Virus genome (UHGV): UHGV-0141068
From: a virus
Direction: 5' to 3' (one strand)
Length of the DNA: 28,359 nt
Of this stretch, positions 9,066-25,521 are shown piece after piece (positions within the stretch are counted from its first letter, which is position 1; the number at the start of each line of letters is the position of its first letter). The notes beneath the pieces are model-generated. The model ran no database searches, was not told the DNA's origin, and saw only the letters and a program-made list of their open reading frames with translations. The position numbers and the translations under genes were made by a program.

Positions 9066-9556
9066 GATTCGATGATTTTCAGAAACGGGTTAGTGGCTTT
9101 CTTCTTCCCCGCCAGGCCAATCAGACGCTGGCGGCTGCTGGGGTCGAGTCCGAGCATTGCCCCCGTACTGCTCATCTCGGACTCCTGTTCTTTTTTGGCA
9201 GTCAGCTCCGGATTTTTGACCATACCGCCCATTGCACCGGTGATGGTGTTGCCCTGTCTGGCAATATTTTTCACGGCACGTCGCCAGAACTCGTAGGCCA
9301 CGCACCACCGCTCAAGCACCGCAAGGTCAGTCACGCACAGCAGGCCCTGACCGCAGAGTTCTTTAGTTGTCAGTTGCCACATGATCGTAGCGAGAGGGAG
9401 ATCTTCTTCAGCGAACCACTCCGGTGGCTCAACACCTTTGATGGGCGTAAAAACAGGTTCATCTTTATTCAGGGCTCGCTTGCCGGGGTTTCCGGCCAGC
9501 GCCTTGCGCGCCGTTGGCTTGGGGCGACGCCCGGAACGCCCCGCCGTTCCAGCCAT
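9062..9556 (-). CDS. terminase small subunit (P27 family)
   Basis: [15 protein letters not shown]-terminus; AGGAG RBS 8 nt upstream of ATG at 9556 (ORF track begins at upstream GTG 9565). Confidence 0.8.
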
Positions 9557-9590
9557 ATGCGGCACTCCTGGTTAAATTTCATTTTTCGCG

Positions 9591-9655
9591 GGTATAAAAA
9601 AACGATGGGGCGGGCAGTCCGGAAGACGTCAGGTCACAGAGATTTGACCCGCCCC
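9591..9655 (-). terminator. candidate intrinsic terminator, possibly within the cos region
   Basis: GGGGCGGG (9607-9614) and CCCGCCCC (9648-9655) inverted repeat followed on minus strand by 7 U (plus A-run 9596-9602); lies between HNH and small terminase genes. Confidence 0.4.
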
Positions 9656-9681
9656 TCCCCTCAGACAGTTGAGAATTATTA

Positions 9682-10032
9682 TCACTTAAGTCGTTCACGG
9701 GCCGTCTTCGCCTTATGACACGGCCAGCACAGACTCTGCAGATTACAGTCGGCATCAGTGCCGCCATGCGCTTTAGGGATGATGTGGTCAACGGTTTTCG
9801 CCTCACGCACCACACCAGCACGCAGACATAACTGACACAGGCCTTTGTCACGCTTCAGGACACCCGCGCGGATACTGTCCCACTTCGAACCATAACCGCG
9901 CTGATGACGGGATTGTCCTGGCTTGTATTGCTTCCAGCCCTCGCTTTTGTGGCTTTCGCAATAGCCTGACGGATCAGTCGTGGTATTGCGGCAACCGCGA
10001 AAACGGCAGGCTTTTGGGGTTCGTGGTGGCAT
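9682..10032 (-). CDS. HNH endonuclease
   Basis: 116 aa with Cys/His-rich HNH-type motifs (CESHK, CQLC, DHIIPKAHGG, CWPCH); directly upstream of terminase. Confidence 0.8.
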   Translation of the reverse strand: MPPRTPKACRFRGCRNTTTDPSGYCESHKSEGWKQYKPGQSRHQRGYGSKWDSIRAGVLKRDKGLCQLCLRAGVVREAKTVDHIIPKAHGGTDADCNLQSLCWPCHKAKTARERLK

Positions 10033-10067
10033 TTATATCCCCTCTTTGGTGCACGCTTACAATGCGT

Positions 10068-10091
10068 AAAAAAGCCTCGCATTAGCGAGGC
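10068..10091 (-). terminator. rho-independent terminator
   Basis: GCCTCGC-ATTA-GCGAGGC hairpin followed on minus strand by U6; separates lysis and packaging modules. Confidence 0.6.
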
Positions 10092-10198
10092 TCGTTTATA
10101 TCTTGAAGGTGAATACTTATTGTCTTATCTATCCACGGGAAACATTAAGATTATTACACCCGTTAGTTGGGAAATAAAACAAAATGCAGGTGGTTTAT

Positions 10199-10423
10199 TT
10201 ATTCTTTGCTGATTGCTTTCTGAATGGCATCGGCTAATGGTTCAATTAAGCCAATAGCTGCTTTTAATTCCTGTTCAAATTTTGCACTTGTAGCCTGACC
10301 ACCTGCAGAAGAAAGTGAGGCCTTAACTAATTCAAGGGCAGCTTGAACAGCTATAACCCTCTGTTTTTGAGCTTGAGTTACAGGCTGAGCACCTATTCCT
10401 GAAGGGAAATAATTCTCTAACAT
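10199..10423 (-). CDS. hypothetical helical protein
   Basis: 74-aa ORF with GGAGG RBS, lower GC than flanking genes, no signal peptide. Confidence 0.4.
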   Translation of the reverse strand: MLENYFPSGIGAQPVTQAQKQRVIAVQAALELVKASLSSAGGQATSAKFEQELKAAIGLIEPLADAIQKAISKE

Positions 10424-10690
10424 TACAACCTCCGTATTAAAAAGTGAGGTTACACATTACCCTTAAGATTACTCTTAGTGAAGAGGTATCTCATAATTAT
10501 CACCCTTACCAATAACGCTTGATGAAATTTGTAATGGACTGGCTCTTATTTCAACGCAACCACTTACCGCGCGCCAGATGCTTAACCTCAAACATTAGCA
10601 ATGAGATGTTTAATCTGAATCCACTCCAGAAGTAATCACCACTCTGTCTACAGGGCCTGATGTGAAGGATGATGAGTAAAATTATCGCTA

Positions 10691-11152
10691 TCATCGAAGG
10701 CATTGCGTCCTGATGTACTCCTGCAGGTAGTTAACCTGTGCGGTTATCCTGTCGATTCCACTTCGGAGACGGTAATAATTGAGTTCAGCATCTGCTGTAA
10801 GTCCTGGGCTTTCTCCATCGCCCATGCCGCTGGCTCTGGTCGTTGATTTTGCACAGGTGGCGGCGACTTGCAGGCGCTTACGCCCAGAAGAAACATCAGC
10901 ACGGAGACTTTCGATAGTCGCGTTAGCATCAGCAAGCTCCTTTGTGTATCTGGCGTCAAGTTCTGCTACGTCACGTTGACGCTTCTGCATATCAGAGATA
11001 GTCGCCATAGCCGAATCTAATGCCATAGCATTCTCATCACGCTGCTTTTTGTATTCGATGGCTTTGCTGTGGTAATAATTTGCTGAACAGATAAAAGAAC
11101 CAATGACAGTAACGAAGAATGCAGCGATAACCAGCTTATAGCTCAACTTCAT
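10691..11152 (-). CDS. Rz: i-spanin Rz
   Basis: 153 aa with N-terminal TM segment then coiled-coil periplasmic domain; overlaps endolysin stop. Confidence 0.85.
   Translation of the reverse strand: MKLSYKLVIAAFFVTVIGSFICSANYYHSKAIEYKKQRDENAMALDSAMATISDMQKRQRDVAELDARYTKELADANATIESLRADVSSGRKRLQVAATCAKSTTRASGMGDGESPGLTADAELNYYRLRSGIDRITAQVNYLQEYIRTQCLR
10744..10929 (-). CDS. Rz1: o-spanin Rz1 lipoprotein, embedded in Rz
   Basis: +1-frame ORF inside Rz; signal peptide with lipobox (LLGVSAC) and proline-rich mature part; start taken at internal Met. Confidence 0.7.
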   Translation of the reverse strand: MLTRLSKVSVLMFLLGVSACKSPPPVQNQRPEPAAWAMEKAQDLQQMLNSIITVSEVESTG

Positions 11153-11612
11153 TTACCACCCCGCCAGCCTCTTTGAATCGGGCAATCAGGTCACCGATTT
11201 TATGTTCATACTGACCGTAACCAGCGCCCGGCAGTGAAGCCCAGATATTGCTGCAACGATCGATAGCCTGACGAATATCGCCGCGATCAATCATCGGTAA
11301 AGCGCCACGCTCTTTAATCTGCTGCAATGCCACAGCATCCTGGCTTTTTGGAGAGAAGTCTTTCAGCCCAAGCTGCTTGCGGTAAGCATCCCACCAGCGT
11401 GAAAGAAGTTGATAACGGCCTGCAGCTGTTGATTTGAGTTTGGGGTTTAGCGTGACAAGTTTGCGAGGGTGATCGGAGTAATCAGTGAAGAGTTCACCAC
11501 CGACAATAATATCATAACCGTGGTTACGTGTCGGTTGTCGCCCGTTATCCGTTCCTTCTGACCATGCCACCATATCGAGGAAAGCTTTACGCTGAGGATT
11601 AAGATTTTGCAT
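11136..11612 (-). CDS. R: lambda R-type endolysin (lytic transglycosylase)
   Basis: 158 aa; NQRKAFLDM.AWSEGTDNGRQ.TRNHGYDVIVGGELFTDYSDHPRK region matches lambda R as recalled. Confidence 0.9.
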   Translation of the reverse strand: MQNLNPQRKAFLDMVAWSEGTDNGRQPTRNHGYDIIVGGELFTDYSDHPRKLVTLNPKLKSTAAGRYQLLSRWWDAYRKQLGLKDFSPKSQDAVALQQIKERGALPMIDRGDIRQAIDRCSNIWASLPGAGYGQYEHKIGDLIARFKEAGGVVNEVEL

Positions 11613-12003
11613 TTTTCACCCCTGTCAGTCGTTCCCAGAAGTACGTCAGTGCAACCGAACCCATCGCACCACTAATCCCCGCTGTCGCGAGAATCATGTA
11701 AATACTGAATCCACTTTCGATGCTGATCAGGCCACCAATAACACCGGTGAATCCTGATACCACTATCTGAGCCAGAGCATTTATCCAACACCACGTTGCT
11801 TTACTCTGCTTCACATCTATCAGGTAGCGGACCAGACCGCCCCAACCTGCGATGATCAGCAAAACGAGCCAGAACGCTCCAGCAAGATTCTCTTTTTCGT
11901 GCATATGAATAGCCGCAGTTTCGCCTCCGACAGAAAATCGGAGCGTGAAATGATATGTTGATTTATTATTAATTCGAAAATTACATTCTAATTCATCAGG
12001 CAT
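11599..12003 (-). CDS. putative holin (start codon uncertain)
   Basis: Three hydrophobic helices immediately upstream of and overlapping the endolysin gene; N-terminal 33 codons are AT-rich and lack an RBS, so real start may be Met at 11904. Confidence 0.55.
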   Translation of the reverse strand: MPDELECNFRINNKSTYHFTLRFSVGGETAAIHMHEKENLAGAFWLVLLIIAGWGGLVRYLIDVKQSKATWCWINALAQIVVSGFTGVIGGLISIESGFSIYMILATAGISGAMGSVALTYFWERLTGVKNAKS

Positions 12004-12021
12004 TGATGATTTTATAATAAT

Positions 12022-12044
12022 AAAGGCCGTTCGTTACGGCCTTT
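12022..12044. terminator. hairpin with flanking A/T runs (possible bidirectional terminator)
   Basis: AAAGGCCG-TTCGTTA-CGGCCTTT between the acidic moron gene and the holin ORF. Confidence 0.45.
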
Positions 12045-12055
12045 ATTATTGATAT

Positions 12056-12391
12056 TTATTTTACATCCCAAGGTAGTTCCTCAAGAGAGAAGACTAATTC
12101 ATTATCAATGATTTCGTATTCTGCATAACCTTCAACCTCTCCTGAGAAGTTATTGTCAACGCATCCTTCATAATAGCTATATGGTGCTATAAAGTGAAAC
12201 CCATATTCATCTATCTCTGTGATTTCAAAATTGTAGTAATCGTAAGAATATCGAATATCATCATCAGAAATAGAACTAAGTACATAGTTATTAAATTTAT
12301 CGGAATGCTTAACGATAAGCTCTGACAACGCGTCAAGATTCTCTGGAGAGATATTTCCTAACGGTAATCTGTACTCAACGGCATTAATCAT
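12056..12391 (-). CDS. highly acidic Tyr-rich hypothetical protein (moron between Q and holin)
   Basis: 111 aa, about 24 Asp/Glu versus 5 Lys/Arg, 12 Tyr; strong RBS AAGGAGG; AT-rich; first gene downstream of tR'. Confidence 0.55.
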   Translation of the reverse strand: MINAVEYRLPLGNISPENLDALSELIVKHSDKFNNYVLSSISDDDIRYSYDYYNFEITEIDEYGFHFIAPYSYYEGCVDNNFSGEVEGYAEYEIIDNELVFSLEELPWDVK

Positions 12392-12443
12392 ACAACCTCC
12401 TTTTTAACTGATATGAGGTTATATAATGTGTTTCAGTACAAGT

Positions 12444-12470
12444 AAATAAAAACCCGCTCAACAGCGGGTT
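12444..12470 (-). terminator. tR'-like terminator of the late leader
   Basis: AACCCGCT-CAAC-AGCGGGTT hairpin followed on minus strand by UUUUUAUUU. Confidence 0.65.
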
Positions 12471-12516
12471 CGTGAAAATTATCAACGGCAGACATACAAA
12501 GCCCATCGTTGAGAAA

Positions 12517-12545
12517 ATCTTATCCATATTTTTTGAAAAATGCAA
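12517..12545 (-). promoter_or_regulatory. PR'-like late promoter
   Basis: Minus-strand TTGCAT (-35, 12545..12540), 17-bp spacer, TAAGAT (-10, 12522..12517), located between Q stop and the tR' hairpin. Confidence 0.5.
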
Positions 12546-12576
12546 GCTTCATGTCGCCATCTTCGGCGAAAATCAC

Positions 12577-13329
12577 TTATCTCGTCACCTTTCTCAATTG
12601 CGTTTCAGCATATGCTTCTTCCTGCCAGCACTTTGTTACTAGTTTATCAATTACGTCTGCATATCCTTTGTACCACTGATAATCAGTCAGGTCTGGAACC
12701 AGCTTCTGGACATGACGTCGTGCCAGTGTAGTTGGTAAACGGCTAAACCGGTTTCCATTGCAACGCCCACAAATCTTATAAACAGGCGTGCCATGAAGCC
12801 GGGTCCTTTTTTCATCCAGGACAATACCTTTACCCTTACACCCTCTGCACGCTGTGCTGACTTCTCCCTTACCATGACAATGCTGACATAGTTCCTTCAC
12901 CCACTCTTCCTTGATAACAGATTCCCCGCTTCTGGAGTGTTTCACCACCTCGCGCAATACATTATGAAATCCAGTACCAGCACAATGCTCACAGCGAGCC
13001 TTACTTGCCGCAGACCTGGAATAATCAGCAAAGGCAAAATTCACAAGGTAAGGAATGATCTGTAGCCGGGTTTCTTCACTCAATTTATTCAATGTCGGGT
13101 TATCCAGTGCCATCGCGTAATTGAGCAGACCTTCAATCGCAAACTGAGGATCCTGAACACCAACTTTTGCCAGGAATAAGGCAAACCCAAGCGGTGCTTT
13201 CGACTGCACCATCCCCTGCGCAGCCATCACATCCGTAATCGTTAAACCACCAGAGCCTGTCGCCGGTGCGTCATCGCTCAGTTTTGGAGATTTCGGGGAG
13301 TAATATTTCGGTAAGGCTTCAAGGTTCAT
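12577..13329 (-). CDS. late antiterminator Q (Qin QuuQ-like type)
   Basis: 250 aa with four CxxCxGxG zinc-finger-like repeats; followed by promoter and terminator as expected for Q. Confidence 0.7.
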   Translation of the reverse strand: MNLEALPKYYSPKSPKLSDDAPATGSGGLTITDVMAAQGMVQSKAPLGFALFLAKVGVQDPQFAIEGLLNYAMALDNPTLNKLSEETRLQIIPYLVNFAFADYSRSAASKARCEHCAGTGFHNVLREVVKHSRSGESVIKEEWVKELCQHCHGKGEVSTACRGCKGKGIVLDEKRTRLHGTPVYKICGRCNGNRFSRLPTTLARRHVQKLVPDLTDYQWYKGYADVIDKLVTKCWQEEAYAETQLRKVTR

Positions 13330-13342
13330 GCTCGTTCTCCAC

Positions 13343-14338
13343 TTACGCCAGTACGCCTATTGCCAGCGCACGATCGATAAAACGAAATATCAGCTCCAGC
13401 TGGGAACCATACTTCTCTTCAAATGCCACGGTATCCGCATGCAGCTCGTCGTGATGCTTTCTGCACAAAGGCAACACAAAGAGGTCATGCGCTTTTGTAC
13501 CCATTCCCCCCTGACCGTGGCCTATCAGGTGGTGGGGATCATCAGCAGGCTTTCCACAACATGCACACGGCTGTGTCTTAACCCAGCGTGTGTACTTTTC
13601 ATTAACCCAGCGGCGACGTTTTGGGCGTAACATAAAAGACTCCGGCGACTCCGGATCCACTTTCAGCGCCAGCACCTTTTTCACCTTATCCTGGATGATG
13701 CTGGTGGCAGGAACCGAAGGCACAAGGTCACTTTCCCGGGTGACAGACGGCACAACAGGCTTCGGTAATCTCAGTGCCTTACGGGCTGCACTTTCCGGTA
13801 AGGCATCCGCCAGGTCATTACGAATCAGCCACCAGCACAGTTCCGGCATTGTCACAACGTGACTATCATCAAAACCGAGATCCCGACGCACAACAGACAA
13901 CACCCAGCGGGCACAGTTATCCGTTGCCATTGATTCCAGCCGTTCCGTGAACTGATCGCGCAGCTGGTTATCGCAGTGCCAGCACAGACGGATTGCGCCC
14001 GGCGCGTGTCGCATTGTTGTCATGTTCTCGCTGTGCCAGTCGGAATGAGGCCACTGGCAGCCTTTTTCACGAAGTAACCAGCTTTCAAGACATTCCACGC
14101 CACCAGCACGACGGATCACTGCCTCATTGCGGAACACGGCCCGAACGTCAGGATCATCCGCCAGCGGTTGTGATGCCGCCGGAACAGCACCACTGGCGAA
14201 AGATGAATAACGTTCCGGCTCAGGCTCCAGCAGGACACGCCCCTGCATAAACAGGGGCATCAGCTCTGAACCTGGTCTGAACAATACGATCCCCATACGC
14301 GGGGCAATTTCAGGGGTCAGTAGTGCTCTCACGGTCAC
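13343..14338 (-). CDS. DUF968-family prophage protein (YdfU-like)
   Basis: 331 aa with C-terminal Cys/His cluster (CACCGKP...HHLIGHG...CRKHH); adjacent to Q as in Qin-type prophages. Confidence 0.6.
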   Translation of the reverse strand: MTVRALLTPEIAPRMGIVLFRPGSELMPLFMQGRVLLEPEPERYSSFASGAVPAASQPLADDPDVRAVFRNEAVIRRAGGVECLESWLLREKGCQWPHSDWHSENMTTMRHAPGAIRLCWHCDNQLRDQFTERLESMATDNCARWVLSVVRRDLGFDDSHVVTMPELCWWLIRNDLADALPESAARKALRLPKPVVPSVTRESDLVPSVPATSIIQDKVKKVLALKVDPESPESFMLRPKRRRWVNEKYTRWVKTQPCACCGKPADDPHHLIGHGQGGMGTKAHDLFVLPLCRKHHDELHADTVAFEEKYGSQLELIFRFIDRALAIGVLA

Positions 14339-14339
14339 C

Positions 14340-15137
14340 TCAATGAACGGTATCGAGCAGCTTTAACAGCTCAGGGAATCGGGATTCGAAGAAATGCGGC
14401 TGCGTCTCACGCGGATTTGCGGGACTGGTGATATTCTTGCCGAACATGCAGCCTTTCGCTGTCAGCGACCAGAATTTTTTGATGTTGTTAATCGCTGTAC
14501 GGCTGTATCGTTCGCGCTGTTCGACGATCCCCAGCTTCGCCATCTGGTGATATGCCTGATTAGCCGTAAGGCGGATACCATACTGCTTCAGCAGTGCACT
14601 CAGTGACAGCGTGGGGCGGCTTGAGCCATCAGGCGCGTCAGCAGGAGCATCAATGGCATAGCGCGGTGCCAGATTCGGTAAGCCAACAGCCTCCTGAAGT
14701 TTCTGACAGGCTCCAAGCACTGAAGAGTTAGACAGATTTAACTCCCGGCGCATAAAGTCCAGCAGAATCACACCAGCCTGCATCTTGTCAGCAGCCTGTC
14801 CGGATAATTTTTCCGGTGCGCTGGTTACCATGTCGAAAGTACGGATCACCTTCAGATGGAATGACGGGCTGATCCACATTGCATAGGCATACACCAGTTC
14901 TTTGCAGACATACGTCCCCTGGTTATTTCCGCCACGAATAACGTTAACTGGCTCTATATTGACCGAGTTGCAAATCTGCAACTCGCTTATTAAACGCTCA
15001 GTTTGCTCATTGCGGAGCCAGAATGCAGGCTTATGCTTATCCAGAGAACCGGCAGCCCTGTGCAGATCGTTCAGGCTGTAACGCCCATAAGCATCACGAC
15101 GAACTTCAATACCATCAATGACCATCAGATTATTCAT
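14340..15137 (-). CDS. KilA-N domain protein
   Basis: N-terminal IDGIEVRRDAYGRYSLNDLHRAAG region typical of KilA-N; 265 aa. Confidence 0.65.
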   Translation of the reverse strand: MNNLMVIDGIEVRRDAYGRYSLNDLHRAAGSLDKHKPAFWLRNEQTERLISELQICNSVNIEPVNVIRGGNNQGTYVCKELVYAYAMWISPSFHLKVIRTFDMVTSAPEKLSGQAADKMQAGVILLDFMRRELNLSNSSVLGACQKLQEAVGLPNLAPRYAIDAPADAPDGSSRPTLSLSALLKQYGIRLTANQAYHQMAKLGIVEQRERYSRTAINNIKKFWSLTAKGCMFGKNITSPANPRETQPHFFESRFPELLKLLDTVH

Positions 15138-15156
15138 ACTTCGTTTCTCCTCTTAA

Positions 15157-15546
15157 TCAGGCGGCTGCACCCGCCGTTTTCTCGTACTTACTGATAGTGA
15201 TCTCGACCTTCCCTTCCGGGATAACCGGTCCCCACTCCACCAGCATTCTTTTCACCTGACTGTCGTCTTCCCACACACCCGCGTGGGTCAGGGCGTCAAA
15301 CAGCGCCTTGTTATAGTTGTCCAGATCGCGGATCCGGTTATCCGGAGGAAACAACACGATCTCCACTGAAGCAGGTGCCGACGTTGGTTTTGGCAGACGA
15401 CGTAACTGCTCAACTATTGCTGCACACGCCGCGCTCTGGAATTTGCGCCCCGCCGCGCTTATCAGGCTCTTACCTGCAAACGCCCCTTTGTTGGGGTGTC
15501 GCCAGTACGTGTTCACGCTGGGCGGGAAAGGCAGAATCAGCTTCAT
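15157..15546 (-). CDS. rusA: Holliday junction resolvase RusA
   Basis: 129 aa, MKLILPFPPSVNTYWR N-terminus and acidic catalytic region characteristic of RusA. Confidence 0.8.
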   Translation of the reverse strand: MKLILPFPPSVNTYWRHPNKGAFAGKSLISAAGRKFQSAACAAIVEQLRRLPKPTSAPASVEIVLFPPDNRIRDLDNYNKALFDALTHAGVWEDDSQVKRMLVEWGPVIPEGKVEITISKYEKTAGAAA

Positions 15547-15869
15547 ACTTTCAGACCCCTCTCATGTAACCAGTGGGCTGCACGCAGCCTGGCGTTTTCC
15601 TCACCGGCAAGCAGTGAGCGGATAATCCCGACCGCCTCGCTGTCGTCGTCCTTCACCGCGGTATGAAGCGTTATCCCCCGGGCCACACCACGCTTTATCG
15701 TGATGACGCCTTTTTTCTCCAGTGCGCGAAGATGCTCCACCGCTGCATTCACTGAACGATATCCCAGCATGGTTGCCACCTCCTGATTGGTTGGCGGAAA
15801 GCCACGCTCTTTCTGGTAAGAAATCAGCATATCCAGCACCTGCTGCTGGCATTGAGTTAACGTCGTCAT
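15543..15869 (-). CDS. LexA DNA-binding-domain protein lacking the S24 peptidase domain
   Basis: 108 aa; LTQCQQQVLDMLISY...PPTNQEVATMLGYRSVNAAVEHLRALEKKGVI mirrors the LexA N-terminal winged helix; no Ser/Lys protease domain follows. Confidence 0.65.
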   Translation of the reverse strand: MTTLTQCQQQVLDMLISYQKERGFPPTNQEVATMLGYRSVNAAVEHLRALEKKGVITIKRGVARGITLHTAVKDDDSEAVGIIRSLLAGEENARLRAAHWLHERGLKV

Positions 15870-16519
15870 GCCGCCATCTCCCTGACCAGTTTTTCCGCCT
15901 GCTGGCGAACCTGCGCCAGAAAGGCCTCACCACATGCCTCAAGTTCATCGCGCCCGATGTAGCTGATTGCCGGTCCCTTCCAGGTCTTGTCGAAAACAGC
16001 AATAGCACCAGCGAAGAAAGCGCCTGTCGGTACCTGCTTCTCGTCTTTCGGGATAAACCAGACAGGCAGTTCAAAACCAATACGCCCGCGAATAAAAGCA
16101 ATATGATCTGCATTTTCCGGCCACCACACTTCGCTGGTGGCAGCTTTGATCAGGAAAACATAGCGCCCGCCTTTATCACGCATGGCACTGGCATGCTTCA
16201 TGATGTAACGCATGCCGGTGATGTATTGCCCCTCATGCTGACTGGCGCGGCTGTATGGGGGATTACCAAAGGCAGCACCTTTAAGCTCCGCAAGACGTTC
16301 TGACCAGTCATGCGCCAGCGCGTTGTCTTCCGCCGTGTAATACGCGGCACATTTGGCGTTATCACCGTCAGTGAACAGATCCAGAACAAACGGGCCAAAC
16401 AGGGTGTTAATTCCCCAGAAAATGTTGTCCGGCGTGCGCCACTGATCGCCCACTTCCTTCAGTTCATGGGCTGGTTTGTTCCGCAGTTCCACCAGCGCCT
16501 GGCAATATTTATTACTCAT
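15866..16519 (-). CDS. phage DNA N6-adenine methyltransferase
   Basis: NPPY motif; start assigned to ATG at 16519 overlapping upstream stop (TAATG) rather than ORF-track start 16552. Confidence 0.8.
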   Translation of the reverse strand: MSNKYCQALVELRNKPAHELKEVGDQWRTPDNIFWGINTLFGPFVLDLFTDGDNAKCAAYYTAEDNALAHDWSERLAELKGAAFGNPPYSRASQHEGQYITGMRYIMKHASAMRDKGGRYVFLIKAATSEVWWPENADHIAFIRGRIGFELPVWFIPKDEKQVPTGAFFAGAIAVFDKTWKGPAISYIGRDELEACGEAFLAQVRQQAEKLVREMAA

Positions 16520-17013
16520 TAAGCCCCCACGTAATTCCCTGACAGATACCACTCTTCACCCGATGCAGCGCGCTTGCTGCTTTTCCGTAAGCACCGCTCA
16601 CGACGCGCCAGAAAATTGTTTCGCTCTTGCTGGGAGTGGCTTTCACGGAATGCCGCCATCCACACCGTTGCAGCACGACGGTATAAGCCCCTGGACTCCA
16701 GTTCTTCCGCCTGGCGGGTCAGGCACAAAATCTCCCGCGGGTCGTTAGTGCCGACATAGAAATTGCGCACAGGTCTGGTTTCACGAACTGGTTGCGGTTC
16801 CGCCTCCTGCGCTCTCTCAGTCAGGCGCGGGAAATGTCTGCGTGTATCCCCTTCACAACGGTGAGCCACACGACCACTCTGACGTAACTTGCTTGCTGAC
16901 TGCAGAACGCGCTGCCGTGAGTAACCTGCAAAAGCATCCGCAATGTCTCCGGAAGTACACCCCGGATGGGCTTCAATGTATTTCTGAACTTCATTCAAAA
17001 GACTCATGATCAC
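16519..17013 (-). CDS. PerC-like transcriptional regulator domain protein
   Basis: C-terminal LESRGLYRRAATVWMAA resembles the PerC family signature; N-terminal part HTH-like. Confidence 0.45.
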   Translation of the reverse strand: MIMSLLNEVQKYIEAHPGCTSGDIADAFAGYSRQRVLQSASKLRQSGRVAHRCEGDTRRHFPRLTERAQEAEPQPVRETRPVRNFYVGTNDPREILCLTRQAEELESRGLYRRAATVWMAAFRESHSQQERNNFLARRERCLRKSSKRAASGEEWYLSGNYVGA

Positions 17014-17951
17014 CCCCTGAATCCTGCCGGGATCTGGCTGTAGTCCACGTTGTCGTAACTGGCTTTGAAGTACGGGTCTTCGCGTTTTTCGGTGTACGTG
17101 CTGACGGACGGCGATAAGCGCAGGGAAAGCTCATCCCATTTTTCCCGCAGCTTCGACGGGCTGAGCACGTTACGGCACCAGAACGGATCGCGGCTGACGC
17201 GGCTGTACATCTCGCAGATTTGTTTGTGAGTACGACCATCCTGCACACACATCAGGCGAATTTCGTTTGCCCAGGCTGTCCAGTTCGGTTCTTTGGGACG
17301 AACCACCTCGCCGTCACATTCGGCGGCCTGCTCGTACAGGGCGATGATTTTTTTCCAGAGCCACTGTGCGCAGGTCAAATCATCCTGCGTTCCCCACTGG
17401 CGCTTTTTAGGGCTGAATACAACCGCATCAGGATGGCGAGTTAAAAACTCCTGTTCAGCCGTCTGCGTGTCCGGTTGCGAAGCGTCCGGACGAGAAGTTT
17501 TTTTATCTGACGGATCATGTTTTGATTTTACTGACGGATCCCCGCCAGATTCTGACGGGTGAAAACCCGCTTTTTTGCCAGATTTCGACGCATCAAATTT
17601 TGACGGGTCAGATTTTGATGCGTCAGATTTTGACGGGTCAGAATCTGACAGTTGAGAAAATGCCGCTGCCTGAAGCTTCGCAACGTTAAGCTGATAAACA
17701 TTCGACGCATTGCGGTTACCCTGGCGACGCGCCTTACGCGTTAACCAGCCTTCTGCTTCCAGCCGTGCGATAGCCGTTCTGACGGTACTCATCCCCGCGC
17801 CAATCTGACGGGCAATGGTTTCAATTGATGGCCAGCACACACCTTCGTCATTACTGAAATCAGCCAGGCGGGCCATAATTGCCACGCTGGATAATTTCAT
17901 GCCTGACGCAGCGCAACCATCCCATACATAGCCGGTTAATTTAGTGCTCAT
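17010..17951 (-). CDS. phage replication initiation protein (N-terminal HTH, DnaT-like C-terminal region)
   Basis: 313 aa; winged-helix N-terminus, low-complexity SKSD/DPSK centre encoded by iterons, conserved C-terminal region. Confidence 0.65.
   Translation of the reverse strand: MSTKLTGYVWDGCAASGMKLSSVAIMARLADFSNDEGVCWPSIETIARQIGAGMSTVRTAIARLEAEGWLTRKARRQGNRNASNVYQLNVAKLQAAAFSQLSDSDPSKSDASKSDPSKFDASKSGKKAGFHPSESGGDPSVKSKHDPSDKKTSRPDASQPDTQTAEQEFLTRHPDAVVFSPKKRQWGTQDDLTCAQWLWKKIIALYEQAAECDGEVVRPKEPNWTAWANEIRLMCVQDGRTHKQICEMYSRVSRDPFWCRNVLSPSKLREKWDELSLRLSPSVSTYTEKREDPYFKASYDNVDYSQIPAGFRG
17500..17655. repeat. iteron array, putative prophage replication origin
   Basis: Eight copies of an AGATTTTGACGGGTC-like unit; last four are tandem at 15-bp period (17595-17654); located inside the replication gene. 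Confidence 0.6.
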
Positions 17952-18299
17952 GACCGACCTCTATTTCCCTGAATTTACGACGAAACTGTTCGAGCGGGCT
18001 GAAGCACTCATGCTCATAGTCTTCGCGGAGGTAGATAACCCGTTGTGTTTCCGGCTCCCAACGAATGACTCTGACGGGTACTCCGTAGTGATCTTTGAAC
18101 CAGCGGTTAACTTGTCGCAAAGGACTGTCTCCTTCTGCCGGTTGAAATCACCCACAGCCCACTCTGCAAAGCTGTGGGTTACAATTTCCCTGTCACCTGG
18201 TACATTCACTGCATAGCAATATTCCACCTTCGCTTTTCCACCCGGTACAGGAAGCGCAATCAGTTGCGAGCGACGGTAGTGTGTTGTTAAACTGTTCAT
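17941..18299 (-). pseudogene. hypothetical gene with apparent -1 frame disruption (or two overlapping small genes)
   Basis: Protein-like N-terminus in one frame (18299 down to about 18130), protein-like C-terminus ([37 protein letters not shown]...) in the -1 frame ending at 17941; frames switch near 18118-18150. Confidence 0.35.
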
Positions 18300-18865
18300 G
18301 CGTTAGTTTCTCCACAACCAGAAGCAATCGACGCCACGACGCCCGGAGCTGCACACTCGCGGGCGTCATTACTTTCTGAAATGCAAAAAATTTTGTAGAC
18401 AAGTGCTGCATGCTCCTGCAGCTTCGAAATTGAGAGATACAGCTCGTCGTTAATTGCTGTCTTCTCATGCGGTTCCACTACACCGTCTTCGATTGCTGAA
18501 CGAATCTGTTTTGAATAACTGCCGATCTGTTCAATGACTTCCAGCAGACGCTGGTTAATATCGGCGTTGTCCACATCCTCGACGTCAGGAAGAGACACAA
18601 AGACGCCATTTGCAGACTGCGCCACAGCATCAGCAATGAAGTGAGTGCCACCAGCACGCTGTAAAACCATTGCCCATCCCAGCGGGAAAATCTGATCGCC
18701 ATCTGCACGAAGGCGGTTGAATAAAGCGTTTTCTGTTACATCGAGCCAGTCAGCCGCTTCAGCGTAACCACCCGGCAACGCCGCGATAGTTTTTCTGACA
18801 GCTTTCACGTACCACTCAGGCTGTTTTTCTATTTTCCAGTGATGCTTACCCACGATTAGCCTCAT
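18296..18865 (-). CDS. CII-like regulatory protein (CP76 type)
   Basis: 189 aa; [34 protein letters not shown] region resembles CII-type HTH; sits directly after cro-like gene. Confidence 0.45.
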
Positions 18866-18896
18866 CGTTCTGTGGTTAAAAATTGAAAGTGTTCTG

Positions 18897-19097
18897 CTAA
18901 TCTTTCGGATAGATATCCGGTCTTAAGTCAGATTTCGTAATTGCACCTGACGTGCATTGCTCAAGTTTTTTAGCCAGCACAAAACTGGCTTTTTTATAGC
19001 CATTGAAAACCAGCCGTAAGTAGCCAGGTGTTGAGCCAACTTTTCCGGCCAACTCGCCCTGCTGTTCTTTGGTTAAAGAGTCCCAATACGCTTTCAT
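18897..19097 (-). CDS. Cro/DicC-like repressor
   Basis: 67 aa from internal ATG 19097 with GGAGG RBS; the longer ORF-track version (to 19400) would overlap cI and the operators; architecture resembles DicC. Confidence 0.65.
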   Translation of the reverse strand: MKAYWDSLTKEQQGELAGKVGSTPGYLRLVFNGYKKASFVLAKKLEQCTSGAITKSDLRPDIYPKD

Positions 19098-19187
19098 ACA
19101 ATATGTACCTCCGATGTACATATTACATGATTGAAATGAACCTTCAAGATACTTGTACCTTAACGGTACAAGGGTTTTAATTTCGTT
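19098..19187. promoter_or_regulatory. OR-type operator/promoter region between cro-like and cI genes
   Basis: Two inverted repeats with GTAC cores: ATATGTAC-N7-GTACATAT (19101-19123) and CTTGTACC-N5-GGTACAAG (19152-19172); minus-strand PR candidate -35 TTGAAG (19147..19142), -10 TAATAT (19125..19120). Confidence 0.65.
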
Positions 19188-19862
19188 ATGAAAACAATCC
19201 ATGACATCCGGCGGTCTAACGCCAGAAAACTGAGAGATGGTGTTGGCGGGAATTCTTCCTTTGCCACTATGATTGATCGCGAGCCAACCCAGACCAGCAG
19301 GTTTATGGGAGATGGTGCTACTAAAAATATCGGTGACAGCATGGCACGACACATCGAAAAATGTTTCGACCTGCCTGTCGGATGGCTCGATCAAGAACAC
19401 CAGACAACGAACATCACAAAAAAACCTGATGTTTCAATCACTAATAAACAAATCACATTAGTCCCTGTCATATCATGGGTACAGGCCGGAGCATGGAAAG
19501 AAGTTGGATATTCTGAGGTTGATTTGAGCACAGCAGAAACGTATCCCTGCCCTGTCCCCTGTGGGGAAATGACTTATATCTTGCGGGTGATAGGTGATTC
19601 AATGATTGATGAGTACCGCCCGGGAGACATGATTTTTGTCGATCCTGAAGTACCTGCCTGCCACGGTGACGACGTTATTGCATTGATGCACGATACAGGT
19701 GAAACCACCTTCAAAAGGTTGATAGAAGATGGGACACAGCGTTATCTCAAAGCGTTAAACCCAAACTGGCCTGAGCCTTACATTAAGATCAACGGTAATT
19801 GCTCTATAATTGGTACAGTGATTTTCTCAGGAAAACCAAGAAGATACAAAATCAAAGCCTAA
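19188..19862 (+). CDS. CI-type prophage repressor with LexA/S24-like autocleavage domain
   Basis: 224 aa; C-terminal half (ISWVQAGAW, GDSM, FKRL, LNPNWP) is the S24 peptidase fold shared with lambda CI; no SD upstream, consistent with leaderless translation. Confidence 0.85.
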   Translation: MKTIHDIRRSNARKLRDGVGGNSSFATMIDREPTQTSRFMGDGATKNIGDSMARHIEKCFDLPVGWLDQEHQTTNITKKPDVSITNKQITLVPVISWVQAGAWKEVGYSEVDLSTAETYPCPVPCGEMTYILRVIGDSMIDEYRPGDMIFVDPEVPACHGDDVIALMHDTGETTFKRLIEDGTQRYLKALNPNWPEPYIKINGNCSIIGTVIFSGKPRRYKIKA

Positions 19863-19874
19863 TCAATGTTTATG

Positions 19875-19897
19875 AACCTGCTTCGGCAGGTTTTTTT
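19875..19897 (+). terminator. rho-independent terminator after cI
   Basis: AACCTGC-TTCG-GCAGGTT hairpin followed by T7. Confidence 0.75.
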
Positions 19898-19901
19898 ATA
19901 C

Positions 19902-19934
19902 TTGACAATGTACCTTTGAGATACATAATGTACC
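19902..19934 (+). promoter_or_regulatory. PL-like early-left promoter with operator half-sites
   Basis: TTGACA (19902-19907), 16-bp spacer, CATAAT (19924-19929); ATGTACC repeated at 19908-19914 and 19928-19934, same core as OR sites. Confidence 0.6.
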
Positions 19935-20034
19935 CAAGAGAAACAACAAACAGGCAGGACGTCCACGAAGTAGCCGCCTGGGGCATATGAAGTCCAAGAT
20001 GATTCGTTAGCAACAAAACGCCCATAGGACGCTT

Positions 20035-20053
20035 CGCTCTTTAACAATTTGAA
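20035..20053 (+). promoter_or_regulatory. boxA-like antitermination element (nutL-like)
   Basis: CGCTCTTTAACAATTTGAA, near-identical to the rrn boxA core GCTCTTTAACAATTT as recalled, about 110 nt downstream of PL. Confidence 0.55.
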
Positions 20054-20351
20054 TATTTTCAGCGTCAATGATCTGTTTAGCTCCCTACAAGTAAATGTAG
20101 CGTAGCACCATGATAAATCCTGCTAGTGTTTAGTTAAAAATCGCGCGAGAGCAAGAACGACGTGAGGGCAGGCAATATTGATAGTGTTATTGCTATTAGT
20201 TTATCAAAAATATTTAGACGACCCAGATGAATATTTTTAATACATACTCCCCCTAATTTAACAGGAGTAAATGTTGATGAATAACGAGACATCTATACTC
20301 AACAATTGTATGATATGAACAATTATATAACATAATGTAGGAAAAATAAAA

Positions 20352-20948
20352 ATGGATTGGCATGACCTTATATCAAAGGTAATTATCGGACTTGTTACAG
20401 GCTCAATCGCAGCTTACTTAACTGCGCGATATGCACTCGGCCGTTATTATAAAGAAAAATGGTGGGACAAAAGAATAGATTTGTATACGCAATTAGTTGA
20501 CTGTGTTTATCTTCTAAAAAACACAGCTGACTATTGGTATAAACATGAGTTACATCACGCTTCACAATTCCCAACCTACTTTAGTTACAAATCAAAAGAA
20601 GAAAATGAAATCCTTAGCAAATCTTTCTCTAATGAGCTTGAAAAACTCAGTAGAATAGGTGAGCTATCTTCATTATTCTTAACAGAAGAGTGTGGGGATA
20701 AAATCCGTTCATTCATTGAAAATGAAGAAAATCTATTTATACAATGGGAGTTTGATAGTATAGAGTTGATAGATGCCCACAAGTCAAGACTTGATAAATT
20801 AAAAGTATTACTAGACGATATTATCTCTGAAGCAAAGAGAGAGCTTAAGGTCAATAAAAAACATAACAGCCTAAAGAATATAAAGTGGTCCATAACTATG
20901 CCAGACCAAAAAAATGATGAGCCAATTAATTATTACGACAATCATTAA
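20352..20948 (+). CDS. membrane-anchored hypothetical protein (moron in early-left region)
   Basis: 198 aa, single N-terminal hydrophobic helix (VIIGLVTGSIAAYLTARYALG) then charged helical domain; markedly AT-rich; own terminator. Confidence 0.6.
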   Translation: MDWHDLISKVIIGLVTGSIAAYLTARYALGRYYKEKWWDKRIDLYTQLVDCVYLLKNTADYWYKHELHHASQFPTYFSYKSKEENEILSKSFSNELEKLSRIGELSSLFLTEECGDKIRSFIENEENLFIQWEFDSIELIDAHKSRLDKLKVLLDDIISEAKRELKVNKKHNSLKNIKWSITMPDQKNDEPINYYDNH

Positions 20949-20958
20949 AACACTTTAG

Positions 20959-20980
20959 AACCCGCTGGGCGGGTTTTATT
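20959..20980 (+). terminator. rho-independent terminator
   Basis: AACCCGC-TGG-GCGGGTT followed by TTTTATT, 11 nt after the stop codon. Confidence 0.7.
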
Positions 20981-21135
20981 CAAATATACTTTGCACATCA
21001 CAAATAAAACTATAACGTCCTTCTTCTTTTCCTAATATCTTATATCTACTTATTTATAAGCGGCTTACAGATCTTCAACAGATAAACCTAATGAAGGCGA
21101 CAATGTTCTGATGAATAGCCACCTTTTTACTCAAC

Positions 21136-21258
21136 TGAAAGCGCGTTCTGTCCCTTGTCATTAAGTGCCAGTTCGTTAAGTCCAAAACCTCCGGAACGCG
21201 CTTTCAATTGAGTGGGGAAAATAACTGGCGATGGCAGCCGCCCGTTGCACTAAGTGCC
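21136..21258. promoter_or_regulatory. structured intergenic element of unknown function
   Basis: 12-13 bp inverted repeat GAAAGCGCGTTC / GAACGCGCTTTC (21137-21148, 21194-21205) enclosing TTAAGTGCC-type direct repeats (21159-21169, 21176-21183, 21248-21258). Confidence 0.4.
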
Positions 21259-21370
21259 TCTGGATGGGGCATTTACTGAAACGAAACCAAAACTTTTAAT
21301 CGCCTTATGGCGAGGGATTCGTGCAACCAAAAATCGTGCGGTGCAGCGCACCAATTAAGGAGAACTAACG

Positions 21371-21907
21371 ATGAGTTTTATCCAGACTCTTACCGGTAAG
21401 AAGTTCAATTATATCAACTCCACCATTGACGATATTTATATCGAGGATATCGCCGGTGCGCTTTCAAATATCTGCCGCTTCGCGGGACACTTGCCGGATT
21501 TTTACAGCGTGGCGCAGCATTCCGTTCTGTGCAGTCAACTTGTGGCGCCAGAGTTCGCCTTTGAAGCGTTAATGCATGATGCAACAGAAGCGTATTGTCA
21601 GGACATCCCCGCGCAACTGAAACGCCTTCTTCCTGACTATAAACGGATGGAAGAAAAAATAGACGCCGTAATCCGTGAGAAATACGGGTTACCCCCGGTT
21701 ATGAGCACGCCCGTGAAATATGCCGATCTCATCATGCTGGCAACCGAACGCCGCGATCTCGGGCTTGATGATGGCTCTTTCTGGCCTCTACTGGAAGGTA
21801 TCCCAGCAACAGAGATGTTCAAAGTTATTCCACTGTCGCCAGGCCATGCCTACGGGATGTTTATGGAACGTTTTAACGAGTTATCGGAGTTACGCAAATG
21901 CGCATGA
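21371..21907 (+). CDS. HD-domain phosphohydrolase (YfbR/YfdR-like)
   Basis: 178 aa with H..H (VAQHSV) and HD (MHDATEAY) metal-binding motifs; strong RBS AAGGAGA. Confidence 0.65.
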   Translation: MSFIQTLTGKKFNYINSTIDDIYIEDIAGALSNICRFAGHLPDFYSVAQHSVLCSQLVAPEFAFEALMHDATEAYCQDIPAQLKRLLPDYKRMEEKIDAVIREKYGLPPVMSTPVKYADLIMLATERRDLGLDDGSFWPLLEGIPATEMFKVIPLSPGHAYGMFMERFNELSELRKCA

Positions 21908-22565: not shown

Positions 22566-22915
22566 TGGAACCATACAGCCTCACGCTAGATGAGGCCTGT
22601 CATTTTCTCAAGATATCCAGACCGACTGCCATTAACTGGATACGCACAGGGCGTCTGCAGGCAACACGCAAAGATCCCACTAAGAATAAATCTCCTTACC
22701 TCACAACACGACAAGCCTGCATTGCGGCGCTTCAGTCTCCGCTGCATACTGTCCAGGTGAGCGCGGGTGATGGCATAACAGAGGAAAGAAAATGTCACTC
22801 TTCCGCAGAGGTGAAATATGGTACGCCAGTTTCACATTGCCGAACGGTAAAAGATTTAAACAGTCTCTTGGAACAAAGGACAAAAGGCAGGCGACAGAAC
22901 TCCATGACAAGCTAA
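22565..22915 (+). CDS. xis: excisionase (P22 Xis-like, AlpA-type HTH)
   Basis: 116 aa from ATG 22565; [36 protein letters not shown]; 3' end overlaps integrase start. Confidence 0.8.
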
Positions 22916-23955
22916 AGGCTGAAGCATGGCGGGTCAGCAAACTTGGTGAAATTCCTGATATAACGTTCGAGGAAGCGTGTGTCAGGTGGCTTGAAGAGAA
23001 AGCACATAAAAAATCACTGGACGATGACAAAAGCCGGATCGGATTCTGGCTTCAACATTTCGCAGGAATGCAACTAAGAGACATTACTGAATCAAAAATT
23101 TATTCAGCAATGCAGAAAATGACGAACCGGCGTCATGAGGAAAACTGGAAACTCAGGGCAGAAGCATGCAGAAAAAAAGGGAAACCTGTTCCAGAATACA
23201 CGCCAAAACCAGCGTCCGTTGCAACGAAGGCTACGCATCTTTCATTTATAAAGGCCCTGCTAAGAGCCGCAGAGCGTGAATGGAAAATGCTGGATAAGGC
23301 ACCAATTATTAAAGTGCCTCAACCAAAGAATAAACGGATCCGCTGGCTGGAGCCTCATGAAGCACAAAGGCTGATTGATGAATGTCCGGAGCCATTAAAG
23401 TCTGTTGTTGAATTTGCACTTGCAACAGGCTTAAGACGCTCGAACATCATCAACCTTGAATGGCAACAAATAGACATGCAGCGCCGGGTGGCATGGATAA
23501 ACCCGGAAGAGAGTAAATCAAACCGCGCAATTGGCGTTGCGCTGAATGATACTGCATGTCGCGTATTGAAAAAACAAATCGGGAATCATCACCGTTGGGT
23601 ATTTGTGTATAAGGAAAGCTGTACCAAACCAGACGGAACGAAAGCGCCAACAGTCAGGAAGATGCGGTATGACGCAAACATAGCCTGGAAAGCGGCGCTG
23701 AGACGAGCAGGTATTGATGATTTCAGATTTCACGACTTGAGACACACCTGGGCAAGTTGGCTGGTTCAAGCCGGAGTCCCGTTATCAGTGTTACAGGAAA
23801 TGGGAGGCTGGGAGTCTATCGAAATGGTTCGTCGATATGCTCACCTCGCACCTAATCACCTTACCGAACACGCACGGCAAATAGACTCGATTCTGAACCC
23901 ATCGGTCCCAAATTTGTCCCAGTCAAGAAATAAGGAAGGTACTAATGATGTGTAA
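22792..23955 (+). CDS. int: tyrosine integrase, P22-type
   Basis: 387 aa; [15 protein letters not shown]-terminus and C-terminal R...HxxR...Y catalytic region (HDLRHTWAS...MVRRYAHL); adjacent to tRNA-Thr-derived att core. Confidence 0.9.
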
Positions 23956-23969
23956 CTTATTGATTTAAA

Positions 23970-24021
23970 TGGTGCCGATAATAGGAGTCGAACCTACGAC
24001 CTTCGCATTACGAATGCGAAG
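23970..24021 (-). other. attachment-site core: 3' fragment of a tRNA-Thr(CGU) gene (not a complete tRNA)
   Basis: Reverse complement reads anticodon stem-loop (TCGCA-TTCGTAA-TGCGA, anticodon CGT), T-arm GGTTCGACTCC and acceptor 3' strand ending CCA; no D-arm or 5' acceptor strand upstream. Confidence 0.75.
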
Positions 24022-24103
24022 TTTTTATATTTTAACTGCTTGAACAACCATCAGAAATCACAAATTTATCATTTTAAATCATAATATTAAAACAAAAAAC
24101 CTG

Positions 24104-24201: not shown

Positions 24202-25521
24202 ATGGCGCTTTCAAGACAAAAACTAACCTTCGAACGAATTCGAAGATTTACTTTACCTGAAGGGAAAAACCAAGTTTTCCTTTGGGATACGGACGTAACA
24301 AGCTTGGCATGTCGAGCAACTCGTGGAGCAAAAGCCTTTGTATTCCAAAGCCTGTATGCGGGAAAAACCCTTCGCATGACCATTGGCAACATTAACGATT
24401 GGAGGATTGATGATGCGAGGGCCGAAGCCAGGCGACTGCAAACATTAATCGATACTGGGATAGATCCGCGTATAGCTAAGGCGGAAAAAATTGCTGAAGC
24501 GGAATCACAGCAGGCTGAATCTCGTAAAACGAAGGCAACCTTTTCAAGCGCTTGGGAAGATTATCTTGATGAATTGAGAACCGGAATCAGCGCAAAAACT
24601 AAACGCCCCTACTCTGCACGCTACATTGCCGATCACGTTAACTTGTCCAGTCGTGGAGGCGAAAGTAAAAAAAGAGGCCGGGGCCCAACCTCACCTGGGC
24701 CACTGGCTAGCCTGCTCGACCGACCATTATCAGAACTAACACCAGAGAACATTGCCGAATGGCTAAGTACAGAGAGACAAAATCGGCCTACCGTCACTGC
24801 TCATGCCTACCGTCTGTTGCGTGCATTCATCAAATGGGCTAATTACCAGAAAAAATATCAGGGAATAATCGATGGCGATCTTGCACAAGATCATAACGTG
24901 AGAAAAATGGTTCCAATATCAGCGAGCAAAGCGGGAGATTGCTTACAAAAAGAACAGCTCAAAAGCTGGTTCAGTGCCGTGCGTAGCCTCAATAATCCCA
25001 TTGCATCAGCCTATCTCCAAGTGCTTTTGCTCACCGGTGCACGGCGTGAAGAAATTTCCTCACTTCGCTGGTCTGACATAGATTTCAAATGGTCAAGCAT
25101 GAGAATTAAAGACAAGATCGAAGGCGAGCGAATTATCCCCCTCACTCCCTATGTTTCTGACTTGTTACGCTCACTGATGGAGATCCCCAATCGTGGTACA
25201 AACGAGGAGAATTGGGTTTTCAGAAGTAACAGCAAAAGTGGCAAAATTATTGAACCGCGTTCAGCACATAATAGAGCATTAACTCGCGCGGAGTTACCAC
25301 ATATCAGCTTGCACGGATTGCGCCGTAGTTTTGGGACCCTCGCTGAATGGGTCGAAGTACCAACAGGTATTGTTGCGCAGATTATGGGCCATAAGCCTAG
25401 CGCTCTTGCTGAAAAGCACTATCGCCGCCGTCCATTAGATTTGCTAAGAAAATGGCATGAAAAAGTTGAATTATGGATCTTAGAAGAAGCAAAAATAAAA
25501 AACAACGTTGATAAGCGTTGA
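24202..25521 (+). CDS. tyrosine integrase, P4 type
   Basis: 439 aa; N-terminal arm-binding-like region, C-terminal catalytic R..HGLRRS..Y region (LHGLRRSFGT, HY near the end). Confidence 0.85.
   Translation: MALSRQKLTFERIRRFTLPEGKNQVFLWDTDVTSLACRATRGAKAFVFQSLYAGKTLRMTIGNINDWRIDDARAEARRLQTLIDTGIDPRIAKAEKIAEAESQQAESRKTKATFSSAWEDYLDELRTGISAKTKRPYSARYIADHVNLSSRGGESKKRGRGPTSPGPLASLLDRPLSELTPENIAEWLSTERQNRPTVTAHAYRLLRAFIKWANYQKKYQGIIDGDLAQDHNVRKMVPISASKAGDCLQKEQLKSWFSAVRSLNNPIASAYLQVLLLTGARREEISSLRWSDIDFKWSSMRIKDKIEGERIIPLTPYVSDLLRSLMEIPNRGTNEENWVFRSNSKSGKIIEPRSAHNRALTRAELPHISLHGLRRSFGTLAEWVEVPTGIVAQIMGHKPSALAEKHYRRRPLDLLRKWHEKVELWILEEAKIKNNVDKR

Follow-up and report, generated by a model that had tools for sequence, protein, structure and literature searches.

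We examined a 28,359-nt stretch of DNA, the viral genome UHGV-0141068 (hereafter the window), and a small gene within it that codes for a LexA-like protein. The window is part of an SfV/e14-like, myovirus-type Escherichia coli prophage and is 100% identical to strain CAVP776. Its minus-strand genes are arranged in the order cro-like ymfT, ymfL, DUF4222, a helix-turn-helix (HTH) replication initiator, PerC, Dam, the LexA-like gene, RusA, KilA-N, DUF968, Q, lysis, head and tail (Table 1). The LexA-like gene begins with an ATG codon, which is preceded 8 nt upstream by a GGGAGA Shine-Dalgarno-like motif. A protein identical to its 108-aa product is annotated in RefSeq.

The first-pass annotation, made from the letters of this DNA, described the product as a LexA N-terminal winged helix with no S24 protease domain, and profile searches bear out both parts of that description. 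Pfam LexA_DNA_bind (PF01726), the profile proposed there as a check, covers residues 1-65 over 65/65 profile positions (E=2.9e-19; 69 bits against a cutoff of 23.7). The top PDB sequence matches are the E. coli LexA entries 1lea, 1jhh and 3jso. In a phmmer search the LexA DNA-binding domain of 1lea aligned without gaps (2-69 to 2-69, E=7e-16), so LexA numbering can be used directly for the window protein. Judged by these E-values, chance resemblance to LexA is excluded. The NCBIfam lexA equivalog TIGR00498 aligns to residues 1-91 and scores 70.8 bits, under its cutoff of 110.95, because only the N-terminal LexA domain is present. A Pfam profile search of the 108-aa protein gave no match to a Peptidase_S24 domain with its Ser/Lys dyad. 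Since the protein stops at residue 108 and rusA begins 4 nt before its stop codon, we regard it as a genuine short protein and not as a frameshifted or broken full-length LexA. The profile phrog_362 ("transcriptional repressor") matches it over its full length (residues 1-108 on profile positions 1-106 of 106, E=1.4e-59).

We compared the predicted structure of the window protein with that of LexA. The AlphaFold2 single-chain model (mean predicted local distance difference test score, 84.8) superimposes on DNA-bound LexA (3jso_B) at 0.9 Å over 68 residues, with 50% identity (50-51% across comparisons). The DNA-contacting residues of E. coli LexA are given as Ser39, Asn41, Ala42, Glu44 and Glu45 (PMC3091678). 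The window protein keeps four of these five base contacts (S39, N41, A42 and E45) and has valine in place of LexA E44. The wing residues R64-G65-I66 of LexA are also kept and are invariant across the family. Positions that do not vary among 17 aligned members are L4, Q8, V11, P26, E30, S39, L50, K53, I56, R64, G65, I66, A97 and L101. The N-terminal domains of family members are 46-62% identical to E. coli LexA and 46-57% identical among themselves. That they are as close to LexA as to each other is consistent with selection to stay LexA-like, and the strong conservation of the contact surface argues that DNA binding is a selected and central activity.

The C-terminal part of the protein departs from LexA. 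Past a linker (residues 69-74) that is modeled with low confidence lies a helical hairpin specific to this family. Its positions 79, 80, 82, 83, 86, 87, 93, 97, 100 and 101 are hydrophobic in nearly all of the 17 members, with A97 and L101 invariant, and the tail consensus reads EAVxxIRALLAxEENARxRAxxWLxxRG. These conserved hydrophobic positions imply an amphipathic hairpin with broad apolar faces, and the pattern makes the tail the obvious candidate for a self-association element. AlphaFold2 predicts matching topology for P0137, a 42%-identical relative from Enterobacter/Cedecea, preceded by a disordered N-terminal extension. Fold searches with the tail against PDB and BFVD gave no match. The window protein ends in ...ERGLKV.

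Two further proposals of the first-pass annotation can be judged from this domain make-up. LexA dimerises through its C-terminal domain. The suggestion that the window protein pairs with host LexA therefore loses its structural basis: the LexA dimer interface sits in the domain that is missing, and the tail that replaces it is an unrelated helical hairpin. The suggestion that the protein is not RecA-cleavable fares better. The domain with the catalytic Ser119/Lys156 is absent, and without an S24 autoprotease activated RecA cannot inactivate the protein. The residues A88-G89 align with A84-G85 of LexA, and distant members have AD, TR, ER, DD or AE there. Because the Ala-Gly pair at the LexA cleavage position is replaced in these members, it is not a feature of the family, and we dropped the idea of a trans-cleavage or pseudo-substrate site as a family trait. 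The window protein also has no catalytic domain that could act on the pair.

The genomic setting indicates when the protein is likely to be made. The immunity region is about 3.3 kb upstream of the gene, which falls within the early operon, and no sigma-70-like promoter of its own was predicted ahead of it. It is a delayed-early lytic gene, placed behind the replication genes, and this position together with the lack of a predicted promoter leads us to expect its product after derepression in this phage. We ruled out a role as a lambdoid CI-type maintenance repressor because the gene is outside the immunity region and the repressor is a separate ymfK-like gene. The first-pass idea that the protein modulates prophage induction consequently needs re-timing, and the RecA-cleavable repressor of this prophage is the product of the ymfK-like gene. 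The operon also codes for a PerC-family transcriptional activator homologue (16519-17013, minus strand), whose gene is the second one ahead of the LexA-like gene. The DUF968 protein (13343-14338, minus strand) carries a weak HNH-nuclease signature (HNHc_6), and of the genes that follow the LexA-like gene, DUF968 is the one kept most constantly in all branches of the family.

Table 1. Features of the LexA-like gene and its surroundings in the window
Feature	Position	Strand	Basis or remark
LexA DNA-binding-domain-only coding sequence, 108 aa	15543..15869	minus	RefSeq WP_000210164.1 "LexA family protein"; PHROG 362
LexA-type winged helix-turn-helix, codons 1-68	15666..15869	minus	helices 6-22, 28-35, 40-52; beta wing 56-58/66-68 (AlphaFold2, Pfam)
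Recognition helix SVNAAVEHLRALEK, codons 39-52	15714..15755	minus	LexA alignment; codons confirmed in sequence
Family-specific helical hairpin, codons 75-103	15561..15647	minus	helix 75-88, turn, helix 93-103 (AlphaFold2; conservation)
ATGA overlap, dam stop / LexA-like start	15866..15869	minus	translational coupling
ATGA overlap, LexA-like stop / rusA start	15543..15546	minus	also in relatives L002, L003, L008
Dam, phage N6-adenine DNA methyltransferase (PF05869), upstream gene	15866..16552	minus	Pfam; RefSeq start at 16519
RusA Holliday-junction resolvase (PF05866), downstream gene	15157..15546	minus	Pfam, annotation
Early-right operon module co-inherited with the gene (ymfL, DUF4222, HTH replication initiator, PerC, Dam, LexA-like, RusA, KilA-N, DUF968)	13343..18865	minus	annotation, Pfam, k-mer sharing
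Q	12577..13329	minus	early-right operon module stands upstream of Q
ymfK-like S24-type (RecA-cleavable class) repressor	19188..19862	plus	annotation; divergent from cro

The LexA-like gene is widespread. It is present in 2233 of 5426 complete E. coli genomes (41%), nearly all at 95% nucleotide identity or more, and a genome can hold as many as four copies. SfV (orf42, "unknown"), SfII, SfIV, mEp460, phage cdtI and many Stx2a and Stx2c phages encode proteins that are identical or nearly so. The database labels of these proteins vary from LexA-like to transcriptional repressor to, wrongly, "SOS-response repressor and protease LexA". In an exhaustive profile search, relatives matching over the full length extended into other Enterobacterales, with identity falling to about 40%; past them came true LexA proteins by the thousand. 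Predicted viral proteomes commonly contain LexA-domain proteins of the stand-alone type. Among temperate-phage proteins that consist of a LexA DNA-binding domain only, gp6 of Bacillus phage GIL01 is the one characterised example. The sequence family is already catalogued and very common, so its value lies in what the protein does.

We next compared the surroundings of the gene in related phages. Loci were gathered by two narrower scans, since a whole-family alignment contains no sufficiently conserved stretch. For the E. coli type we used 80 IMG/VR loci whose LexA-like protein is 99-100% identical, and for the N-extended branch (Klebsiella, Enterobacter, Cedecea and Salmonella) 80 IMG/VR loci that encode 49 distinct proteins. 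Six distinct distant contexts were also compared (L002, L003-L005, L006, L007, L008/L009 and L010). The rusA gene lies directly 3' of the LexA-like gene in all 80 E. coli-type loci. It is found directly downstream (L002, L003-L005, L008/L009, L010) or past one small open reading frame (ORF; L007) in five of the six distant contexts, and in L006 the two genes are split by an inserted opposite-strand gene. The pairing is kept with two different RusA subtypes. A DNA methyltransferase gene is directly upstream in the window, L002, L006 and L008/L009, and one small ORF further up in L010. Among the 80 phages with a 99-100% identical protein, k-mer sharing delimits a common module at 13400-18800, stretching between the replication genes and DUF968. 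Only about 20% or fewer of these phages share the immunity region and the Q/lysis region.

We then looked for LexA boxes with a scoring matrix built from 20 E. coli LexA boxes, which themselves score 12.9-26.8 bits. The LexA-like gene of the window showed no sign of SOS-box autoregulation, as there is no box in the window and no predicted promoter of its own, and pairs of CTGT/ACAG half-sites at spacings of 0-24 in the window formed no pattern. In the N-extended branch, upstream sequence was long enough to judge in 73 loci, and 68 of these have a strong near-consensus LexA box no more than 1.6 kb ahead of the gene, most of them scoring 24-30 bits. The order found there as a rule is a terminator, a sigma-70 promoter overlapping the LexA box, dinI (PF06183), a phrog_1813 ORF, the LexA-like gene (phrog_362), a 67-aa ORF, sometimes rusA, DUF968 and Q. 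These relatives are predicted to be expressed directly from a LexA-controlled promoter together with dinI. Operons of this kind, under SOS-box control, tie the family to SOS circuitry in other genera. Strong LexA boxes also occur elsewhere within ±6 kb in 39 of the 80 E. coli-type loci.

Several of these loci have features of separate interest. The phrog_1813 ORF (75-96 aa, no Pfam match) precedes the LexA-like gene in 78 of 80 N-extended loci (e.g. L070:5586-5876, L010:4724-4951, L007:4713-4961). It stands in the place that the antirepressor takes in Gifsy but shows no similarity to GftA, and is a candidate for a new antirepressor family. Boxes of 25.8-27.2 bits (e.g. TACTGTTTTTACATACAGTA) lie inside the coding sequence of a cI-like S24 repressor, in its linker region (L002:836-855, L134:2408-2427), and a box within the cI-like repressor gene recurs across many E. 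coli phages that carry the LexA-like gene. Downstream of Q, a LexA box of 20-22 bits overlaps the start codon of an N6/N4 DNA methyltransferase gene or comes just before it (L134:11012-11031, L010:7739-7758), suggestive of a methylase moron under SOS control. One E. coli-type phage has a terminator hairpin and an SOS-box promoter (TACTGTATTTATGAACAGTG, 22 bits) directly after rusA, and this promoter drives a KilA-N gene (L167:900-1090). The C-terminal half of this KilA-N protein equals that of the window KilA-N (14340-15137), whose copy has no box.

We propose that the window protein is an uncleavable LexA surrogate of lytic growth, which keeps or restores repression at LexA boxes. We favor this reading tentatively and place it somewhat short of probable. 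Its DNA target, oligomeric state and physiological effect are all what we infer for the protein. The LexA winged helix and the conserved hairpin would together make a sequence-specific DNA-binding protein that is transcribed with the early-right replication and recombination genes, either after prophage derepression or upon infection. It would thus appear at a time when host LexA is broken down or phage replication risks setting off the SOS response. Two copies, probably joined by the hairpin and by LexA-type wing-wing contacts on DNA, would sit on CTGT-N8-ACAG boxes, and LexA-controlled promoters would be re-repressed or kept repressed. This repression would bear on the host SOS regulon and on those modules of related or co-resident prophages (antirepressor, dinI, KilA-N, methylase) that LexA controls. 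A stable, gene-encoded DNA-binding domain with an added self-association element would amount to a stronger version of the LexA N-terminal fragment. In its fullest form, the proposal describes a RecA-proof viral LexA mimic that binds LexA boxes as a hairpin dimer, re-silences the SOS regulon and the antirepressor, dinI, KilA-N and methylase modules of co-resident prophages, and so serves as an anti-SOS or inter-prophage competition factor. We consider this complete picture possible, though doubtful.

The occupation of SOS boxes by the window protein is plausible on sequence grounds. LexA boxes are favored over a phage-specific operator because four of five contacts and the wing are kept, because the N-terminal domain is as near to LexA as to its own family, and because one and the same protein occurs in phages with different regulatory regions. 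Since the identical protein is found with differing immunity and Q/late regions, and the shared module contains no candidate operator, a constant target outside the phage fits best. The family's ties to SOS circuitry, the LexA boxes at neighbouring genes in E. coli-type phages, the amphipathic hairpin and the SOS-box binding reported for the LexA N-terminal fragment also speak for the proposal.

A number of observations weigh against this proposal. The 28-kb window contains no exact CTGT-N8-ACAG, and its best box scores 12.9 bits, no better than chance given maxima of 11.4 ± 2.5 in shuffled sequence. Position 44 is valine in the window protein and is never glutamate anywhere in the family. Position 45 is Leu, Ile, Gly or Asp in several members, with Leu in most of the Klebsiella branch. 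Given this variation at E45 and the constant lack of Glu44, canonical SOS-box recognition cannot be family-wide. The boxes upstream of relatives may reflect control of expression by host LexA and not binding by the phage protein. Dimerisation through the tail is a proposal, and the structure predictions covered single chains. GIL01 gp6, the truncated LexA homologue that has been characterised, binds another palindrome and acts as a transcriptional activator. Finally, the searchable literature holds no functional study of this enterobacterial family and no experimental data on it.

The example of gp6 leads to the main rival explanation, in which the window protein is a phage-specific transcription factor with its own non-SOS palindrome and activates or represses phage genes in lytic development. 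There is direct precedent for this, as gp6 activates the late promoter P3 via GaCACAnnTGTGaC (PMC6182141). The variability of recognition-helix positions 44 and 45 also fits, and so does the divergence of the LexA-like protein (40-50% identity), which is faster than that of the adjacent RusA (66-85%), as is often the case for specificity determinants. However, an identical protein would have to serve phages with different immunity and late regions, the shared module yielded no repeated or conserved CTGT-half-site palindrome or other candidate operator, and the window protein retains S39, N41, A42 and E45. In these phages, Q antitermination controls the late genes. We judge a phage-specific factor unlikely overall, though it is the competitor to be taken most seriously.

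The constant gene neighborhood raises another explanation, that the protein is a non-transcriptional DNA-binding accessory of the recombination/replication module and works with RusA, the methylase or the DUF968 nuclease, for example by targeting or modulating junction resolution. The position of rusA in every E. coli-type locus and near the gene in five of six distant contexts, the conserved 4-bp overlap of the two genes, the persistence of the pairing across two RusA subtypes, and the methyltransferase gene directly upstream in the window and three distant contexts are all in keeping with such a role. Yet most Klebsiella-branch loci have no rusA nearby (dinI, orfX, LexA-like, p67, DUF968), many RusA-encoding phages, such as phage 82 and DLP12, are not known to carry a LexA-like gene, and gene order in the lambdoid nin region is conserved through modular inheritance. 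This role is improbable. Still further down we rank an SOS modulator that works by protein contacts, with the hairpin binding a host factor (the RecA filament, the LexA C-terminal domain or ClpX) and the winged helix acting as a DNA tether. The tail is conserved and amphipathic, relatives share an operon with dinI, which encodes a RecA-filament binder, and phage factors that act on LexA or SOS through protein contacts exist, such as GIL01 gp7 (PMC6182141). Against this, the tail has no sequence or fold similarity to known RecA or LexA binders, and the strongly conserved DNA-contact residues argue that DNA binding is central. We regard this last explanation as very improbable.

Should the protein indeed sit on LexA boxes, a damage-insensitive version of the SOS repressor's DNA-binding head would be present in two of every five complete E. 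coli genomes. Stx2-converting and Shigella serotype-converting phages would carry such a head too, and would express it just as host LexA is destroyed. It could then shape the strength and duration of SOS gene expression during prophage induction, including mutagenesis, filamentation and colicins, as well as the firing of LexA-controlled antirepressor prophages in the same cell. Direct operator competition would join the known phage routes of SOS tuning. If the protein instead has an operator of its own, it would be, next to GIL01 gp6, a second and independent instance in which a phage has turned a LexA domain into a transcription factor.

Other features of the window were noted in passing. 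Short inverted repeats in 9500-21400 comprise only a likely origin repeat, immunity operators and terminators. An 18-nt inverted repeat (GACGCATCAAATTTTGAC / GTCAGATTTTGATGCGTC, 89% complementary, 17587-17624) lies within the HTH_36 replication-initiator gene, where the gene encodes a repetitive SDSDPSKSDASKSDPSKFDASKS segment, and is probably the phage origin with iterons. Two palindromes (19094-19130 and 19152-19172; e.g. CTTGTACC-TTAAC-GGTACAAG) between the cro-like ymfT and the ymfK-like repressor gene are probably the immunity operators and are unrelated to LexA boxes. An Rfam tRNA match at 23973-24045 (minus strand, 36.3 bits, no ARAGORN call) is just past an integrase gene (22792-23955) and is probably a tRNA-derived remnant of an attachment site. 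A second integrase gene (24202-25521) has an internal stop in RefSeq. PADLOC returned no meaningful defence-system match.

We compared the window protein to E. coli LexA (1lea, 1jhh, 3jso) and its cleavage product. The two winged helices are alike in sequence (50-51% identical over 68 residues), backbone (0.9 Å), four of five base contacts and R64-G65-I66. Unlike LexA, the window protein lacks the S24 autoprotease/dimerisation domain with Ser119/Lys156 and has a helical hairpin instead, and its gene is phage-borne, in an early lytic operon with no SOS box upstream. The host LexA fragment reportedly exposes a C-terminal ClpX degron, a finding attributed to Neher et al. in 2003. The window protein resembles this N-terminal fragment (1-84) in being a DNA-binding domain without the C-terminal domain. 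The fragment alone reportedly still binds SOS boxes and represses to some extent, and ClpXP has to clear it (PMC10584840). The host fragment is described as rapidly degraded (PMC10584840), whereas the window protein is gene-encoded and has an extra folded hairpin.

The closest characterised phage protein is GIL01 gp6, also a LexA DNA-binding-domain-only protein of a temperate phage that is made early in lytic development (PMC6182141); for the window phage, early timing is expected from operon position. As described there, gp6 consists of little more than the winged helix; it activates the late promoter by binding GaCACAnnTGTGaC, and K38 is critical (PMC6182141). The window protein differs in its conserved tail, in LexA's own contact residues, and in belonging to a Q-antiterminated lambdoid phage. 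The enterobacterial family as a whole differs from gp6 in the conserved hairpin, in the LexA recognition residues of its E. coli type, and in its lambdoid early or SOS-box/dinI operons. We found no candidate for a gp6-type cognate palindrome at a late promoter of the window phage, and the late/Q region is not co-inherited with the gene.

The operons of the relatives recall those of the Salmonella Gifsy prophages, in which a LexA-controlled operon contains dinI, an antirepressor gene and irsA (PMC3121763). Relatives of the window gene stand third in a similar arrangement of terminator, SOS-box promoter, dinI and small ORF, whereas the window copy has neither an SOS box nor dinI. We checked whether the Klebsiella-type LexA-like gene is a homologue of Gifsy irsA (Lemire et al.) against Gifsy-2 and Gifsy-1 and rejected this: Gifsy-2 STM1020, the irsA homologue, is a DUF1367 protein (PF07105, E=4e-98) with no BLASTP similarity to the LexA-like protein. 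In its proposed effect, the damping or reshaping of host SOS, the window protein would be comparable to the phage SOS modulators GIL01 gp7 (PMC6182141), Listeria AriS (PMC9043618) and prophage DinI. These proteins work by protein contacts or have unrelated folds, whereas the route we propose for the window protein is direct competition for LexA operators by a LexA-derived domain.

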